Below, piece by piece: positions 6,190-33,800 of a DNA stretch of 64,000 bases (within the stretch, counting starts at the first letter, position 1; every line of letters begins with the position of its first letter). The stretch spans positions 32,001 through 96,000 of IMG/VR virus record IMGVR_UViG_2718218135_000001; one strand, given 5' to 3'. The notes under the pieces were generated by a model. The model did not search any database. It was not told where the DNA came from and saw only the letters and a program-made list of their open reading frames with translations. The position numbers and the translations under genes are program-made. Origin of the DNA: a virus (taxonomy: Duplodnaviria; Heunggongvirae; Uroviricota; Caudoviricetes).

Positions 6190-6714
6190 TTAAAACGGTA
6201 AAATCCGTTCGACCCAATCGAAGAGAACTATCGTTCGTCCGCGCTCGCCAACTCTCATTGCGACCTGACAGGCATCAACGCCTAACGAACACCCCTCAAT
6301 TTCACGGCCATCCGCCATGTAGACCCTTATAGACTTTTGCGCCTCATGAGCTTGACGACAAATTTTGAAGAAATCGCGGCGAGATGGCCGATTGTCCACA
6401 TAGTCAGGGTGTACAGTGAGCCTACCTGTAAACATCTTGTCCACTTCGACAGGTGTAATTGTTTCTATGGTGCTAACTCGCTCCAATGGAAGACGAACAC
6501 GATGTTCTTTACTTCCTATAACGGGAGAAAGATCTAGCTTATTGCGTGCGGTAAGCAGACCAATAACGTAAAGACAAAACGTCTGACCATCATCGATCGT
6601 GACCCTTACAGGTATATTCCTTGCCCGTAGGAACTGCAAACTAAACTCCACGTTAGAGTAGTCGCGGGGCCAGACCTCTGCTGGGATGCCGTATGTAATG
6701 TCTGTGATCGTCAT
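6190..6714 (-). CDS. hypothetical protein (174 aa), translationally coupled to upstream gene
   Basis: start overlaps upstream stop (TAATG). Confidence 0.55.
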   Translation of the reverse strand: MTITDITYGIPAEVWPRDYSNVEFSLQFLRARNIPVRVTIDDGQTFCLYVIGLLTARNKLDLSPVIGSKEHRVRLPLERVSTIETITPVEVDKMFTGRLTVHPDYVDNRPSRRDFFKICRQAHEAQKSIRVYMADGREIEGCSLGVDACQVAMRVGERGRTIVLFDWVERILPF

Positions 6715-7304
6715 TAGTCTACCTTAAGTGGCGTGTCGAGAAGCCCAAACTTAAACTGCTTGCTACCTGCCACGAGGAAGGGGGCTTCGATGTAAATGGT
6801 TTTGTTGTCGATATCTGATTTTGCGGTCTTTTTGATGTCTTTTAGAAGCCTAATTGTTGCTGCGTTGTCCAGAACAAGTACTTTGCCGGTCGCATCATTG
6901 CCGATTTTGCCGTATGTCGTGAACGATTCATTACTGCCAACGCGGATATTAATCGGGCAACCGCTCTTGGCGATCTCATCACAGTACATAGTTCCATCAA
7001 TCACATTTAGTAGACCGTAGGTTGGAACAAGAGCCTTGCCAGAGTTGGTGCTTGTTCCTTCTTTGACAGCTGTACCCATGATTTGAAGGCGCATATGTTC
7101 TGATTCACCGGAAATCAGTGTTTCTTCCGCGTTATCGGAATACCTGAACCATACAGGTTGAACTGTTCCTCTGGCCTCGTATTTTACATTGTCTAGGGTA
7201 GTGAACTTGCTGTACGTTTTTTGCATGTCAGCAACCATATCTGACACTGCATTGGCAGAGAATGATAGAATATAGGTGGTTACTAAGATGGCTAAACGAG
7301 TCAT
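6714..7304 (-). CDS. hypothetical secreted protein (196 aa)
   Basis: N-terminal signal peptide MTRLAILVTTYILSFSANA; GAGGT RBS. Confidence 0.55.
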   Translation of the reverse strand: MTRLAILVTTYILSFSANAVSDMVADMQKTYSKFTTLDNVKYEARGTVQPVWFRYSDNAEETLISGESEHMRLQIMGTAVKEGTSTNSGKALVPTYGLLNVIDGTMYCDEIAKSGCPINIRVGSNESFTTYGKIGNDATGKVLVLDNAATIRLLKDIKKTAKSDIDNKTIYIEAPFLVAGSKQFKFGLLDTPLKVD

Positions 7305-7602
7305 TCTGACCTCAAATTAACGATATGCTATTTCCAACAGAAGATGCTGCTTATAAACGCCTCAAGATGAAATCTGAATAATTTGTCTTTGAAAAAATTT
7401 CTCGCCATGAGTGATTTTACGCTCTAGCGAATTAAGAATTTCGTTAATGAAAATATTCATCCACCACCTCTGGCTCAAATTCCTCGGTTGTGAAGCCTAC
7501 AAATATTCGTCAACCGATCAAGAACTTTTTTTTCAGCCGGAGGTGTGCGAAATTGTGATATAAATCACATGCTGACATCTACAGACGCCAGCATATTGAT
7601 GA

Positions 7603-8142
7603 TTATTTGTCCAGCACTTTGTACTTGTTCGTAATCAAACGCTCACCCTTTCTGGTAACTGTAAAACCAAACGGCGCTTTGCTGTTTTTACGTAACACGC
7701 TTTCAGCGAGCGCTTCATCGGTAGGTTGTATAGTTGAATTGTCTATCCAGTCGATGAGGGTAAGAAAGTTTAAAAGTTTCATGCTCGTGACGCCCATCTT
7801 ACAGGCTATGTCACGGACGGTACGAATCTGCCTGCATTTTGTTTCATGTGCTGCGATAGGTGTCTTTGAATTGTTTGGTGTCAGTAACGTATCCAGTGTA
7901 TTAAAGAACCCCCTTGCGGATTCAGACTTAATAAGACCTGAGTCGCTCATATCACACGCGATACGGTACAGAATATTGCTGTTGTTCATGAAGGGATAGT
8001 TCTCAACGAATCTGACGAATGCTTGTGCATTTTTCTCTCCGCATTTGTAATCCAGCGGATTATCTACGCGCCAGAAAAATGCACTGTTGTTTTTTGCGTC
8101 AAAGATATCAACAAATGGTAGTTCAGCTAAATAGTTCATCAT
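7603..8142 (-). CDS. hypothetical protein (179 aa)
   Basis: ORF; start codon lies inside a 12-bp inverted repeat (8137-8175). Confidence 0.5.
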   Translation of the reverse strand: MMNYLAELPFVDIFDAKNNSAFFWRVDNPLDYKCGEKNAQAFVRFVENYPFMNNSNILYRIACDMSDSGLIKSESARGFFNTLDTLLTPNNSKTPIAAHETKCRQIRTVRDIACKMGVTSMKLLNFLTLIDWIDNSTIQPTDEALAESVLRKNSKAPFGFTVTRKGERLITNKYKVLDK

Positions 8143-8204
8143 GTGCTCCTTTGTAACTTGACGAGCACATGATGAACTACGAAATAAGGGGAAAAAGTGG
8201 AAGA

Positions 8205-8483
8205 TTACGGCAGCCGTTTGAGAATATCGGCCAGATCTTCTTTGGTCATACCCGAGTTTTCGTAAATCTTCATGACCTTTTCACGAGCCTTTGCAGTAGT
8301 CTCTAATGACGTAGCTATCTTATCAAAATCACCCATCGTCATATTGGACAGCACCAGATTGATGATGTCTGCCTTTGACAGTTTTATGCTGCGTTCACGC
8401 AGTCGATTCTGAAAGGTCTCTAGTTTATCGTTTGCTTTTTCGGTTAACTTAACCTGGCAGTTAATAGCGCGTTTCTCGCTCAT
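8205..8483 (-). CDS. hypothetical protein (92 aa) coupled to helicase
   Basis: starts 3 nt after the helicase stop. Confidence 0.5.
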   Translation of the reverse strand: MSEKRAINCQVKLTEKANDKLETFQNRLRERSIKLSKADIINLVLSNMTMGDFDKIATSLETTAKAREKVMKIYENSGMTKEDLADILKRLP

Positions 8484-8485
8484 GC

Positions 8486-10045
8486 TTACTCTCTATCCAA
8501 AACAGTGAAATCGAATGTGCTGCCAACCGGCAAGACCCCCTCGGCAAACCCAGGCGTCGTGTCGATAATGTGTTTCCGCTCATATGAATGCGACATGAGG
8601 TATTTGTTGCTCACGTCGATGAAGTCGGTAATAAAGCACACGTTAGCCTGATTTTTCTTGGCTCGTAAGCCACGACCGACACGCTGTCTCATTTCAACTT
8701 CTGCTTTCCCGCCACCACCCAGAATCACCGCGCCTACGCTTGGAACGTCGACACCAACATCCAGAATGGTTGAACCAATGAGAACATCTATCTTGCCTGC
8801 CGCCAGACTATTAAGTTTTGCTTGTCGGGTAGTCTGGTTTGATTCTCCGTAGATGAAATCGACCTTGAGGCCACTCTCTTTCATCATTTCCATCAAGATC
8901 TGACCATGACGCTTCAGACGAACCAATGTCATACAGTTCAGACCGTGACTCTTGTACATTAGCGCTTCACGCACAATAGCTTCGTTGCGGCCCAGATTAT
9001 AGACGATGCCTAACTGATAGGCTTTCTGGTAAGCCGTGCTCATTCCAACCCTAAAATTCAGGTGTTTTGAAGCAAGTTCGGCTCTAATCCGCGTCTCATC
9101 TGGAGTGTACGCGATTTTATGATATAAAAAGTATGGTTTCGCTAAAATACCTCTGTCGATCAAATATTTCTCCGTTACTTTTATCTCGATGCGACCCGCA
9201 ACGGCCATGAGACGCATATTTGCTTCAGTCGAGTCCTTCATGAACGGCGTAGCTGTCAGCGCCAGACGGTAGTCGGCATTGGTACACAACCGGGCTATAT
9301 CGTAGAAGTTTGAGCCGGATGATTCGTGCGCTTCTTCCAGAATCAGCAGAGAAACGCTGGACAGGAAGCGCTTAACCAATTCCCGGCGTTTCAGGTGATA
9401 CTGTTTTTTCTCTGGAGATGCGTCGCGCGACGGCTCTTCGAGAAAACTAGCAAGGGTCTGAACCGTGGCAACGTTGATATGGCGCGATACCTGAAACTCA
9501 CCAGATCCAATCACCCCAACTTTCTGACCTTTCAGCCACGGCTCGCCATTCTTCGCGCGGTAGTCGATGGATTTCTGGAAGTTCTCTGCCATCTGGAACA
9601 TCAGAACCGAGCGCGTGGTTAAAAACAGCGTCATACGACCAATGCGAGCTGCTGCCTTACACGCTACGTTCGATTTACCGCCACCCGTCGCAATCTGGGC
9701 AATCATCATCCCTTCGCGCACCAGTGTTTCCACTGTCTGATCCTGATACGCGTAGTCCGGGTTATACGGGAATGGATTAACCACCGGATTCGGCTTACCC
9801 AGCGCGGGAGCTTTTTCCTTGCGAACATGCACGCATTTGATGCCAGCTTTCAGAAGATTGGTCGCAACTGGCTTCGCAAACCCAGCCGGGAACGCGTTTT
9901 TACTCCAGTTGAACATCGTGCTGGTCCCTTTCCAGTCACCAGCCTCCACTTCATAGCTCAACATCTCCTGAACAAGCCGTTTCACGTTGTCATCAGCGCC
10001 AGAAATCAGCGCATTGACTGCATTTGATACAATCCGAACAGTCAT
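8486..10045 (-). CDS. superfamily-2 DEAD/DEAH-box helicase
   Basis: Walker A IATGGGKS, DEAH-type box LILEEAHE, SF2 motif order; AAGGAAAGAGG RBS. Confidence 0.8.
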   Translation of the reverse strand: MTVRIVSNAVNALISGADDNVKRLVQEMLSYEVEAGDWKGTSTMFNWSKNAFPAGFAKPVATNLLKAGIKCVHVRKEKAPALGKPNPVVNPFPYNPDYAYQDQTVETLVREGMMIAQIATGGGKSNVACKAAARIGRMTLFLTTRSVLMFQMAENFQKSIDYRAKNGEPWLKGQKVGVIGSGEFQVSRHINVATVQTLASFLEEPSRDASPEKKQYHLKRRELVKRFLSSVSLLILEEAHESSGSNFYDIARLCTNADYRLALTATPFMKDSTEANMRLMAVAGRIEIKVTEKYLIDRGILAKPYFLYHKIAYTPDETRIRAELASKHLNFRVGMSTAYQKAYQLGIVYNLGRNEAIVREALMYKSHGLNCMTLVRLKRHGQILMEMMKESGLKVDFIYGESNQTTRQAKLNSLAAGKIDVLIGSTILDVGVDVPSVGAVILGGGGKAEVEMRQRVGRGLRAKKNQANVCFITDFIDVSNKYLMSHSYERKHIIDTTPGFAEGVLPVGSTFDFTVLDRE

Positions 10046-10109: not shown

Positions 10110-10808
10110 ATGGATTGTATCAAAAATATGGATGTGAAAATTACGATTCTACAGGTGGAAGTCGCGAACCTGCGTCCGAACCCCTGGAATACCAACTCCG
10201 TTGGGGCGCAAAACTTCGAAAAACTGAAAGGTTCCATCGAAAAGTTGGGCTTTTTTAAGCCAATTCTGGCGCGAGAGCTGGACGGCGGCATTTTTGAGAT
10301 TCTCGGTGGCGAACATCGCTGGCGTGCCGCGATGGAGCAGGGCATTTCAACGGTTCCCGTAATGTCGGTGGGAAAAATTAACGACCTGGTGGCCAAACAG
10401 ATGTCTCTCGTCGATAACGAGCGCTACGGCGAAGACGATCAGATCGCTTTGCAACGCTTAATCGAAGAAATTCAGTCTGAAATTGACTACCGGTTGTCTG
10501 ATATCGCCCCGTATGACGACGAAATGGCGGCAACGCTCGCCAAAGCATCCGTTATCGATCTTGAAGCGCTGGAAGCGCTCTCCCGCGGCGATGACGAGCC
10601 GGTCGGTGAGGACAAACGCGAGAAAATCGAGCGAGTCGGTGCTGAACACCAGACGATGCGCTTCAAGGTGACGTTCGATGCGTCAGATCGCGTCGCCGAT
10701 ACCATCAAAACCATCATCAAAGAGCAGGGAATCAATACCGGTAACGAAATGGAGAACGCCGGGGAAGCCTTGGTGTGGCTGGTCGACTACTACAAGGAGC
10801 GTATGTAA
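10110..10808 (+). CDS. ParB-like nuclease-domain protein 1
   Basis: ParB/Srx N-domain signature LRPNPWN ... GGEHRWRAA; start choice uncertain. Confidence 0.7.
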   Translation: MDCIKNMDVKITILQVEVANLRPNPWNTNSVGAQNFEKLKGSIEKLGFFKPILARELDGGIFEILGGEHRWRAAMEQGISTVPVMSVGKINDLVAKQMSLVDNERYGEDDQIALQRLIEEIQSEIDYRLSDIAPYDDEMAATLAKASVIDLEALEALSRGDDEPVGEDKREKIERVGAEHQTMRFKVTFDASDRVADTIKTIIKEQGINTGNEMENAGEALVWLVDYYKERM

Positions 10809-11476
10809 TGACCAAGAACTTTGAAATCGTATATCGAAACCCGGCAGAACTTATCCCGTATGAGATGAACGCCAAAAAACATGACGAACAGCAGATCCAC
10901 GACCTGGCGGCTGCCATCAAAAAGCGCGGTTTTGACCAGCCGATCACGGTCGACAAGCACGACGTCATCATTACTGGTCACGGTCGTCGCGAGGCGGCAC
11001 TTCTGGCTGGTCTGGAGCGTGTGCCTGTCATCGTTCGCGACGATCTGAGCGAAGAAGAAGTGAAGGCGAAGCGTCTTGAAGACAACCGCCTGGCCAGTAT
11101 TGACTACGACGCCATCAAATTGCAGCAGGAACTGGAGTCCCTGGTGCTGGGTGACGTTGAGGTCTTTGGTTTTGAAGAGCGAGAGCTGAACGTGCTTGTT
11201 GGCAGCATGACCGAAGAGATGGAAACAGGCTCTCTGGTGCTCGATCTGGGTGAAGAGACGGAACGCCAGAAAGAAGAGCACACCGAGATCAGTCGCGAAG
11301 TGGCCTCTGAAGAAGTCCGAGTCATCGACGTATTGGGCTTTAAAACGCTCCCTGCTGGCTCTGCCATTGTGGTTGGGGATTTGCTTGCCCACATGGAAGA
11401 AATTACGGGAGAAAGCGGGGTAGACGCTTTCGTGGCGTATGCGGAGAAAGTTTCCTCTGGGGAGCTGGCTGCATGA
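10808..11476 (+). CDS. ParB-like nuclease-domain protein 2
   Basis: HGRREAA arginine motif; start overlaps upstream stop (TAATG). Confidence 0.7.
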   Translation: MTKNFEIVYRNPAELIPYEMNAKKHDEQQIHDLAAAIKKRGFDQPITVDKHDVIITGHGRREAALLAGLERVPVIVRDDLSEEEVKAKRLEDNRLASIDYDAIKLQQELESLVLGDVEVFGFEERELNVLVGSMTEEMETGSLVLDLGEETERQKEEHTEISREVASEEVRVIDVLGFKTLPAGSAIVVGDLLAHMEEITGESGVDAFVAYAEKVSSGELAA

Positions 11477-13530: not shown

Positions 13531-13551
13531 ACCGGTCTGGGAGCCAGATTA

Positions 13552-13615
13552 AGAACCTGCTTCCGTATATATAATTAACTAAGTGATTAATTAAATATAT
13601 ACGGAAGCAGGTTCT
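13552..13615. repeat. perfect 21-bp inverted repeat with 22-bp AT-rich spacer
   Basis: agaacctgcttccgtatatat ... atatatacggaagcaggttct; one arm repeated exactly at 43887-43908. Confidence 0.85.
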
Positions 13616-13647
13616 GAAGGCTCCCCAGCCCGATTTTAAACACCCAG

Positions 13648-30835: not shown

Positions 30836-33800
30836 ATGGAACAGTTCAAGAAGAAAAAGTTACCGCTGTTTATTGCCGGTGCGGGTGGTAAAAAAAGTAG
30901 CAAAAGCTCCAGCCGTACACCGGTTGAAGCCGACGATACCGTAAATTCTCGTGCAATGGCCGCTATCCTCGATCTTCTTGGGGAAGGGGTAATTGGCGGC
31001 TTAGTAAATGGCGCAAGATCTATTTTTATCGACGATCTGCCGATTGTAAATGAAGACGGTTCCTCCAACTTCAGCGGAATCACATGGGATTTTCGCGACG
31101 GTTCACAAGACCAGACTCCAATGTCTGGCTTTGATTTCGTTGAAACGCCTAAATCCGTCAATATCCAGTTAAAAAAAACGCATTATGTAACGGTTTCAAT
31201 CGATAACGATGAAGCTGATCGGGTTCGTGTCATCATGAAGTTTCCTTCTTTGCGAAGCATAGATAAAAAAACTGGTGACACGAACGGTACGACTGTTGAG
31301 TACAAGTTCCAGATAGCAAATGGCGACTCAACATTTGTAGATGTGGTCGCGGAAGGTGAAAAAAGCGTTGGCATTAAGCTAACAGCAAAGAAGACCGGCG
31401 TTTATTACCGTAGCTATGAGCTGAAGCTGCCTAAGCCTGGACGAGCATACAAGGTTCGTGTAGTCCGTATTACCGATGATAACAGTAGCCAGTATCTCTA
31501 TAACGATACATGGGTGGATTCAATCGGGGAAATTGTCGATACACCGATGAACTATCCAAACTCTGTTTTGGTTGGATTGAAGGTAAACTCTGAGCAATTC
31601 GGCAGCACCATGCCATCTCGCTCTTATCTGGTGCGTGGCCTAAAAATTCGAGTACCTTCAAACTATAACGAGTCCAGTAACACTTACGCTGGGGTATGGG
31701 ATGGCACTTTTAAGCTGTTGTCTTCTTCGAACCCCGCGTGGATTCTCTTTGATTTGCTGACCAATGCTCGATATGGCCTTGGTCAGTATGTGTCGGAATC
31801 TATGATTGACCTTGGCCAGTTGTACCAGATTGGTCGATATTGTGACGAAGAGGTCGATGATGGCTTTGGTGGCAAAGAGAAACGCTTTGCAATCAATACG
31901 CAGATCACCAGTCGACAGGACGCATACCGGCTAATTCAGGATATTGCTGGAGCATTCCGCGGCATGGTGTTTTGGGCTGGTGGGATGGTTAACATCATGC
32001 AGGATAGCCCATCAGATCCGGTAATGATGTTTACCAACTCTAACGTCAAAGATGGATTGTTTACCTATAAAGGTTCTGCGCGTAAAGATCGCCCATCCGT
32101 TGCGCTCGTAACCTACAACAACAAGGAGGACGGTTATAAGCAAAACATCGAGTACGTTGAAGATCAGGACGCAATGCGCCGTTATGGTGAGCGTAAGACA
32201 GAAGTCGTAGCATTTGGCTGTACAAGCCGAGGGCAGGCTCACCGAGTTGGTTTGTGGCTTTTGTATACCGCCAGAATGGAGTCGGATGTAATTACATTTA
32301 CTGCCGGCTTAGACGCGTCATTTTTGATGCCTGGTGAAACCGTTCTGATTCAGAACAAATATCGCGCAGGCAAACGTAACTCAGGTCGAATTGTGGCGTT
32401 TACCAAAAACAGCGTCACACTCGATGCGCCTGTGTCGTTAGCCAAAGGCGGCTGCTTTATTCGAATACTGAATCAGGAAGGCAAAATCGTTGAACGCGAT
32501 GCTCTTGAAACTGGCGAAAATATAACAAAAGTTACGTTTTCAAAAGCCCTGTCGTCAGCGGAAACGCCTGTTTTGAACGGTGTCTGGACAATTACAGAAC
32601 CAGATCTCGAACCTATGCGCGTTCGCATCGTTAACATCGCTCAGGGGGAAACGTCGGGTAGCTTTGACATCACCGCTGTTGAAAACAATCCGTCTAAATA
32701 TGAGGCGATCGACAATGGTGCAACGCTTATCCCGCAGAATACGACGGTATTGGACCCGACTTACTCCAAGCCGTCTAATTTGCAAATCACTGAAGGGACT
32801 TATCTCTCAAGCCCGGGCAACCTGTCAGTAAAACTGACTGCAACATGGGAAGGGAAATCTCCAGAGTATTGGATCAGTTGGCGACGTTCTGATGCAAACA
32901 ATGTATCGAACTGGCAATCGACGCGTGTAACCGAAGAGCAATACGAAATCGTTAATGTCGCGGAGAATGGACGCTACGACTTCCAACTGTATGCGGTTTC
33001 ATTCAACGGTAAAAAAACAGAAATTATCAGCACCGTCTACAAAGTTCAGGGGACGATGACGCCGCCGGATGCACCGACTGCACTGACGGCCGTGGGCGAC
33101 TACCGCAACGTGATTCTGAATTGGGTTAACCCGGACTCAATCGACCTCGATCACATCAACGTGTATGCATCCCGGACCAACAACCTGGACACTGCAAAAC
33201 TAATTGCCGAAGCAGCCAGTACCACCTTTACGCACGCAGGTCTTGGAGATAGCGAAACTTGGTTCTATTGGGTTCGTGCAGCAAACAAACGCGGAATGTT
33301 GAGCCAGCCGAACTCCAATTTGGGCACTGAGGCGATGACGAAAGATGTTCTGTCTTTCCTGACCGGGAAGATCACTTCTTCGGAATTGGGGCAGGAACTG
33401 CTTGAGGAAATCGACACCAAAGCCTCGCAGGAAGCCGTCGACGCAATCAACAAGCAGATGGAAGAAAGCCTGAAAAGCCTTGATGACAAATTTACTGAGA
33501 CCGATCAACGGATTGAAGAAGCCCAAAACGTTCTTAGAACGGAAGTTTCTAATACTGCCAGCAAGGTGGAAGAGGCTCTTAAGGAGGTTGAAAACTCAAA
33601 TGCCGCATTAATTCAGTTGAAGGAAACTGTTTCAGAGCAGGACAAGGTCGTTGCTGGAGCGGTTGAGGCCGCGAATGCAGCACTGGACAATTCATCGGCT
33701 TTAGTTGCGGAGGAACGTGAGGCACGAGTCGAAGGCGACTTGGCGAACGCGAAAGAAATCGAGGCAATGAAGTCAACTGTAGATAGCAGTTTGGCCACCA

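Follow-up and report, generated by a model that had tools for sequence, protein, structure and literature searches.

Fold-back inhibition is said to have been described for IS10 (Tn10), with an equivalent in IS50 (Tn5), by Davis, Simons and Kleckner in 1985, Krebs and Reznikoff in 1986, and Schulz and Reznikoff in 1991. In these elements, the distal arm of an inverted repeat reportedly holds the ribosome-binding site (RBS) or the start of the transposase gene, only transcripts that come from outside fold and are translationally silent, and the promoter of the gene itself is placed so that native transcripts are without the proximal arm. The principle of protecting transposase genes from impinging transcription is restated in bioRxiv 10.1101/2025.01.24.634351. 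Here we describe an inverted repeat of similar arrangement, with an internal transcription start site (TSS) that is a predicted one, at the start of a 179-aa gene in a 64,000-nt stretch of DNA (positions 32,001 to 96,000 of the IMG/VR virus record IMGVR_UViG_2718218135_000001). The whole stretch is called the window below. It is likely that the stem formed by this repeat is a selected cis-regulatory RNA structure, which occludes the RBS of the gene on transcripts with both arms. That the hairpin is a fold-back anti-RBS element, which uncouples the gene from the upstream operon by means of a transcript from the gene's own promoter without the 5' arm, is about an even call. In contrast to IS10 and IS50, there is no transposase or insertion sequence (IS) at the element. 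It lies in a phage-plasmid operon in front of a gene for a predicted winged-helix protein, and its stem is much longer (18 bp, perfect). By analogy, the element would work like the IS10/IS50 fold-back family, but it is not a member because it belongs to no transposable element.

Several other known systems share parts of this arrangement. Differential expression of the cistrons of one operon can be set by intercistronic stem-loops, such as the malE-malF repetitive extragenic palindromic (REP) hairpin and those of the puf operon. The hairpin of the window is likewise stable and intercistronic, and the upstream segment is more abundant in the related phage Cyrano, as described below. The malE-malF and puf hairpins, however, include no RBS of a following gene, and no promoter overlaps them. 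Antirepressor genes of phage-plasmids are under RNA control in P1 (immI c4/icd-ant) and in N15 (CB/antC). There, as would be the case here, a plasmid-prophage silences a small regulatory gene by RNA structure at or near the RBS. A trans-acting antisense RNA is used in P1 and N15, whereas no antisense RNA partner was found at the window hairpin. In the 5' untranslated region of IS200 tnpA, the Shine-Dalgarno (SD) sequence is sequestered by a stable stem, with strong repression of translation as the result; the SD is preceded by a C/A-rich stretch that is single-stranded, and the promoter is weak (PMC4513863). An SD-sequestering stem, a C/A-rich single strand before the SD and a weak predicted promoter are seen at our locus too. 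The IS200 stem differs in sitting in the native mRNA; a separate terminator blocks impinging transcription there, and an antisense small RNA (sRNA) and Hfq are involved. The locus would represent a known principle, that of IS10/IS50 and IS200, in a new setting inside a phage-plasmid operon.

The gene (7603-8142, minus strand; 179 aa from ATG1, beginning with MMNYLAEL) is separated by a gap of 62 nt from a 92-aa gene, the last cistron of a helicase operon, and this gap contains the inverted repeat. The repeat (8132-8148 / 8163-8179) is perfect, with 17 nt per arm and a spacer of 14 nt. The sequence-only reading of this DNA had reported a start codon buried in a 12-bp inverted repeat. The burial is confirmed, as the strings quoted there are present and the open reading frame (ORF) exists on the minus strand. 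The repeat is real, but both 12 bp and the 13 nt per arm that were quoted are too short. RNA folding of the 5' region, which had been proposed as a check, gives for the sense strand an 18-bp stem of -29 kcal/mol with a closing G.U pair (G8180.U8131). The stem has a z-score of -8.35, and none of 200 dinucleotide shuffles matches its fold energy. Among perfect short-loop inverted repeats of the window it is the longest, and there is no second copy of its arm within the window. The hairpin is far from a chance match.

The 5' arm (8163-8180, minus strand), the putative anti-RBS, overlaps the -10-like hexamer and the discriminator of a predicted promoter. The loop GUCAAGUUACAAAG (8149-8162, minus strand, 14 nt) starts with G8162, the predicted +1, and ends on its 3' side in AAAG, which provides the first half of the SD. 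The SD is AAGGAG (8151-8146). Its GAG half lies inside the 3' arm (8131-8148, minus strand), which also holds ATG1 (8142-8140), ATG2 (8139-8137) and codons 3-4. Because the L003 clade and P0022 do not have ATG1, ATG2 at 8139 is probably the conserved start. The spacing from the SD is 6 nt to ATG2 and 3 nt to ATG1. The energy needed to open the RBS (positions -15 to +12) is 23.4 kcal/mol, more than for any other of the window's 65 crude gene calls (median 9.2, standard deviation 3.7).

A hairpin is found at the equivalent position in eight of nine lineages (denoted by L numbers), with protein identity down to ~20% and quite different stem sequences. Among close relatives, the core CATCATGTGCTC / GAGCACATGATG is constant, and the outer stem and one core pair covary. 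A G-C pair in the window is A-U in Enterobacter L001; its 3' base stands at the third position of an Asn codon, where the change is synonymous. In the clade of L003 and Cyrano, the C-G pair of the first ATG, inside the ATGATG/CATCAT core, is changed to G-C. Sense-strand stems of four clades contain G.U pairs (the window, L002, L003 with two, and L055). In alignment A5, 86% of cells are paired, and four pairs (13 cells) are changed on both sides. The covariation score is 0.183, compared with 0.097 in shuffles, and 0 of 500 shuffles reach it. The covariation measures collapse when the pairing partners are slid by 1-3 columns.

The distant lineages show 19-27% protein identity and unrelated stem sequences, and all of them are syntenic. 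In eight of the nine lineages, the SD and/or the AUG is inside the 3' arm, overlaps it or follows it directly. The stem of L113 is CGCUCCGUU / AACGGAGCG (z -1.95). L114 has an 8-bp inner and a 15-bp outer stem, with the AUG in the outer one (z -8.7). The stem of L117 is 13 bp (z -6.1), and those of L110 and L123 are 8-9 bp (z -1.6 for L110). The stems of L120 from Providencia, with the AUG inside, and of L121 from Pectobacterium are both 10 bp, as folded without a z-score. The loops across these distant lineages are 13-22 nt long and CA-rich. L116 is the sole lineage without a stem (z = +1.07).

The nine lineages were anchored on a pyrimidine box to compare their layout. In all nine, the box xTTTTT(C/A)CCC is separated from a hexamer by exactly 13 non-conserved nt; after a further 7 nt comes a CA-rich leader (19-38 nt) in front of the SD and the AUG. 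The window has CTTTTTCCCC as its box, located in the -35 region (8188-8197, minus strand); T2 and CCC of the box are invariant in all nine lineages. The -10-like hexamer of the window is CATCAT (8169-8174, minus strand). The hexamer is TAnnAT in seven lineages and TAAATT in L110, and it is CATCAT in the window clade. By column, it has T in 8/9, A in 9/9, two free positions, A in 8/9 and T in 9/9. TAnnnT is present at offset +23 in eight of the nine lineages and in at most two at any other offset. Pairing does not account for the hexamer, since it is outside any stem in L113 and L114. The 5' arm ends at, or no more than 3 nt from, the predicted +1 in every lineage. A consensus promoter scan of the L003/Cyrano type made an independent call, TTTACC-16-TATGAT. 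The combination of box and hexamer occurs once in the window, and the box alone is not enriched. L116 can be regarded as a natural control. It has a canonical terminator after the upstream gene, and it keeps the hexamer and a degenerate box (~7/10 positions, aligned by eye) at the same spacing, while the stem is absent.

From these observations, the following course of events is proposed. RNA polymerase that arrives from the helicase/92-aa operon would transcribe both arms. On this read-through RNA, the 18-bp stem would bury the SD and the start codon, leaving the gene untranslated. The untranslated RNA would probably be terminated by Rho or degraded, and the upstream message would be left with the stem capping its 3' end. 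G is scarce in the intergenic regions (8-16%, versus 25% in the window) and C is frequent (20-33%), a composition like that of Rho-utilization (rut) sites. The gene's own promoter (box 8197-8188, 13 nt, CATCAT 8174-8169) would start at about G8162, and the resulting mRNA, which is without the 5' arm, would have an open A/C-rich leader of 19 nt and a free SD. Since the predicted start is the first loop base, the hairpin should form only on read-through RNA and not on the gene's own mRNA. The model predicts a TSS at the loop and translation from the gene's own transcript only. Insulation, rather than a switchable attenuator, is the best reading of these sequences. The sequence-only reading had suggested translational sequestration or attenuator-like control. 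Sequestration of the SD and the start is well supported by the folding, the ranking within the window and the covariation, but it would most likely apply to read-through RNA only.

Expression data are available for the homologous locus of phage Cyrano in Escherichia coli LF82, whose intergenic region is of the L003 type, base for base. The re-analysed RNA-seq values in PMC9928086 (S1 Table; log2 of fragments per kilobase per million (FPKM) + 5; ten samples, five conditions) range from 5.0 to 8.4 for the helicase gene CYRAN_118, from 6.3 to 9.9 for the 92-aa gene CYRAN_117 and from 2.3 to 5.9 for the family gene CYRAN_116. CYRAN_117 is listed as expressed at 12x background in lysogeny (PMC9928086). 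In every sample of this dataset, RNA falls 7-30-fold across the hairpin. Polarity together with decay of a cistron that is not translated would account for the fall, and so would a stem that caps the upstream message at its 3' end. As a separate observation, the annotated start of CYRAN_116 (L119, OV696614, 1987-2586, minus strand) is an in-frame ATG made by the palindrome in the 5' arm, which gives 199 aa instead of 188. This start is probably a mis-annotation caused by the inverted repeat, 11 codons too long, and gene callers can be misled by an ATG of this kind.

Some observations weigh against the insulation model. The opposite (antisense) strand of the repeat folds about equally well. The consensus promoter scan found no promoter at the window locus, and the hexamers of the window clade, CATCAT and TTTTTC, are weak and match sigma-70 poorly. 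In the Cyrano RNA-seq, the family gene is low throughout the five conditions, revealing no active internal promoter. The lineages are related, and the shuffle statistics therefore overstate their independence. Long perfect palindromes can stay perfect through template-switch (quasipalindrome) correction, and part of the compensation seen among close relatives may be mutational rather than selected. The hairpin is also kept, and is perfect, in lineages that lost the gene (L063/64 and L004). L063/64 and AnCo3 have the 18-bp stem followed by a 6-codon remnant without an SD. In L051-54 and L088, where the gene is absent, a related GTGCTC...GAGCAC stem stands right after the stop codon of the 92-aa gene. 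Since the hairpin is retained without the gene, it likely has a function for the 3' end of the upstream operon in addition to the insulating role.

The 3'-end function leads to an alternative in which the hairpin primarily serves the end of the helicase/92-aa operon, as a boundary of the transcript and a stabilizer against 3' exonucleases, with the overlap with the start being secondary. The RNA drop in Cyrano, where RNA of the 92-aa cistron exceeds that of the helicase cistron, and the gene-less lineages just described are expected from it. So is the arrangement in SSU5, pHCM2 and pMT1. Their DNA is shared with the window only down to ~8212, upstream of the box, and the hairpin and gene are replaced by a terminator at exactly the same position, after the 92-aa gene, where it ends the helicase operon. 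The terminator of these three is, however, a GC-rich stem with a U-tract, followed by a lipoprotein gene, whereas the stem of the window is AU-rich, contains a start codon and has no U-tract. No U-tract is present in any lineage, and the scan calls no terminator there. The 3' arm always holds, overlaps or abuts the SD or AUG of the next gene despite unrelated stem sequences, for which an element that acts purely at the 3' end would have no need. Polarity on a cistron that is not translated would be expected to cause the RNA drop just as well. As a primary function this is rather unlikely, although it is compatible with fold-back insulation and does not exclude it. The sequence-only reading had named a hairpin that acts only as a terminator for the upstream gene as the outcome that would refute its proposal. 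The Cyrano drop and the survival of the hairpin after gene loss fit that scenario in part, but without a U-tract the hairpin is not an intrinsic terminator. It is most likely that the stem also marks a transcript boundary. A constitutive intercistronic translational attenuator, in which there is no internal promoter and the stem sets a very low level of translation on the operon mRNA, is a tentative possibility that we regard as unlikely. Relief might come from ribosome standby on the open loop, cleavage of the 18-bp stem by RNase III or an unknown activator. The intergenic region is short, with no consensus promoter in the window, the SD and AUG are inside the stem in most lineages, and the RNA of the gene is low yet detectable in Cyrano. 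The 13-22-nt unpaired CA-rich loops resemble C/A-rich elements that are discussed as enhancers or standby sites of IS200 tnpA and tisB (PMC4513863). This alternative, on the other hand, leaves unexplained the invariant box, the hexamer at the fixed 13-nt spacing, which is outside the stems in L113 and L114, and the 5' arm that always ends at the predicted +1. L116, which must have its own promoter because of the upstream terminator, keeps the hexamer, the spacing and the degenerate box without a stem. A stem of -29 kcal/mol would permit essentially no translation. RNase III sites require about two helical turns (20 bp or more) of nearly perfect double-stranded RNA; the stem is 18 bp in the window, 19 bp with a bulge in the L003 type, 8-13 bp in distant lineages, which is too short, and 15 bp in the outer stem of L114. 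Judging from these lengths, RNase III processing could occur in some clades only.

Binding of a protein to the repeat was considered in two forms. The repeat could be a DNA palindrome, an operator for a dimeric protein such as the predicted winged-helix product of the gene, which would regulate itself, or the 92-aa protein. The predicted MerR/Xis-type winged helix of the product, the overlap of the palindrome with the predicted -10 and +1, and the symmetric arm changes that co-evolution of a dimer and its operator would also give are consistent with this. An operator would be expected to have short half-sites of conserved sequence at one constant spacing, under the same constraints on both strands, but the arms (8-18 nt), the spacers (13-22 nt) and the sequence vary between lineages. 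The perfect complementarity reaches far beyond a protein half-site, sense-strand G.U pairs are tolerated, the spacer is strand-asymmetric (CA-rich), and the SD and AUG invariably fall at the 3' arm. A DNA operator is very unlikely. The stem-loop could alternatively be the RNA operator of a translational repressor encoded nearby, such as the FljA-like protein (6190-6714). A gene of the FljA family is syntenic with the family gene in every lineage, and FljA-type proteins prevent translation of the fliC mRNA (PMC2652032). The FljA-like gene is, however, also present in SSU5, pHCM2 and pMT1, which have neither the gene nor the hairpin, and the stem sequences differ between lineages. An RNA operator of this kind is extremely unlikely.

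Other candidates were rejected. An intrinsic terminator is not found by the scan at 8131-8180, and there is no U-tract (the tails are UUAGCUG in the window and UUAAAAG in L003). In the window, an out-of-frame ORF of 15 codons starts at the ATG of the 5' arm; in the L003 type this ATG is in frame. With neither an SD nor a conserved frame, it is rejected as the start of a leader peptide and considered a by-product of the palindrome. Coupling of translation to the 92-aa gene is not expected, since a ribosome that terminates at its stop codon, 25 nt before the stem, would be too distant to melt the stem. An RNA thermometer is ruled out by the stability of the perfect stem (-29 kcal/mol), which is too great for melting at physiological temperatures. 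Pairing of the GcvB sRNA with the CA-rich leaders gives duplex energies no better than those of shuffled leaders. A search with the covariance models of Rfam 15 returned only sub-threshold matches to generic miRNA hairpins (at most 20 bits, versus gathering scores of at least 66). A repeated element or a class of phage promoters was also rejected, since the arm, the GTGCTC...GAGCAC pattern and the layout of box and hexamer each occur once in the window. Between L051/L052 and L053/L054, at ~1785-1815, the loop is the exact reverse complement (TGATTAGAATCAT versus ATGATTCTAATCA), the DNA between the arms having been flipped.

The 179-aa protein has no match in Pfam, NCBIfam or PADLOC, and to this extent it is an orphan, as the sequence-only reading had called it. 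It does match PHROG 13473 (function unknown) with an E-value of 5.6e-41, and it has syntenic homologues. The description as an accessory orphan gene does not hold; it is a syntenic member of a narrow family, with a constant place after the helicase and 92-aa genes. A profile search of 1.84 billion representative proteins found 18 clusters only, seven of which are full-length lineages. Plasmids of Providencia and Pectobacterium were added by tblastn, which also placed P0037 in Moellerella plasmids. The gene order ParB, ParB / helicase, 92-119-aa gene, family gene, variable genes and FljA-like gene is observed in every lineage examined.

A structure model from a diverse alignment reached a mean predicted local distance difference test (pLDDT) of 82.6, while an earlier model from a shallow alignment was unusable (pLDDT 44). 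In the model, residues 1-89 form an N-terminal domain without a structural match, residues 90-103 a disordered linker and residues 104-179 a predicted C-terminal winged helix of the MerR/Xis type. The product is accordingly modelled as a winged-helix DNA-binding protein, and this narrow, putative winged-helix family is flagged as a candidate regulator. An antirepressor function is only hinted at by weak fold matches of the C-terminal domain to KilA-C/Ant. Sequence searches of the PDB with the 179-aa and 92-aa proteins were uninformative, and no transposase domain was found in the 179-aa product. A far-reaching possibility, and a long shot, is that the gene is an unrecognized switch regulator of SSU5-type phage-plasmids, an antirepressor- or excisionase-like winged helix. 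It would be strictly uncoupled from the constitutive helicase operon and switched on solely through a promoter that depends on an activator and has the invariant TTTTTCCCC box as its mark, with the stem and Rho polarity as the safety catch of a lysis-lysogeny or copy-number decision.

In plasmid pGS04EC-1 (L125, 2630-3680), the IS5-like element ISKpn26 is inserted at TTAG in codons 5-6 of the family gene. The site corresponds to ~8127-8130 of the window, and the insertion cuts the gene off from the RBS, the hairpin and the promoter. The region is likewise interrupted by ISKpn26 in NZ_AP027538.1 (hit H4). These insertions indicate that the family gene is dispensable for plasmid maintenance. A recombination junction at the hairpin was considered and rejected, as the homology break at 8130 in pGS04EC-1 is the ISKpn26 insertion and not a module boundary.

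By sequence similarity, the window belongs to an SSU5-like phage-plasmid. The region is 98-99% identical to non-mobilizable E. coli plasmids, mostly of 108-120 kb, and the relatives include plasmids of Enterobacter, Klebsiella, Salmonella (pHCM2) and Yersinia (pMT1) and the phages SSU5 and Cyrano. A scan of genome contigs gave one locus only, which is identical to the window. SSU5-like phage-plasmids, which are related to pHCM2 of S. Typhi and to pMT1 of Y. pestis, are common and medically relevant, and they carry resistance genes in Klebsiella and E. coli, yet their regulation is almost unknown. The locus is a delimited unit of promoter box, anti-RBS stem, gene and terminator, with a strong comparative signal.

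Upstream of the hairpin, the 92-aa gene (8205-8483, minus strand; PHROG 1466; homologue CYRAN_117) is preceded by the DEAD/ResIII helicase gene (8486-10045, minus strand), 2 nt away, which is the first cistron. Downstream, a terminator-like stem of 13 bp with a U-rich tail (7567-7596, minus strand) lies 7 nt past the stop codon of the 179-aa gene and closes the unit of promoter, gene and terminator. It is contained in a 300-nt gap without ORFs (7304-7603), together with a T-run at 7525-7533. Homology with Enterobacter plasmids begins at ~7560-7603, which suggests that the unit of promoter, hairpin, gene and terminator behaves as a cassette.

The FljA-family gene (6190-6714, minus strand) is full-length ('repressor of phase-1 flagellin'; PF03614, E 6.4e-69) and occurs in synteny with the helicase locus throughout the SSU5-like lineages seen. 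By analogy with the FljA-type proteins, which block fliC mRNA translation (PMC2652032), the phage-plasmid protein may repress the host flagellin or bind an RNA of its own. Two consecutive, overlapping genes with ParB-N domains (10110-10808 and 10775-11476, plus strand) are divergent from the helicase operon and conserved in all lineages. The longest inverted repeat of the window lies among short ORFs at 13549-13572 / 13595-13618 (TTAAGAACCTGCTTCCGTATATAT...; 24 nt, 96% complementary, spacer of 22 nt). A perfect 12-nt inverted repeat, CTGTACGAACAG-N9-CTGTTCGTACAG, is present at 62362-62373 / 62383-62394. Each of its arms is itself a CTGT...ACAG palindrome, and from its symmetry the repeat may be the binding site of a regulator.

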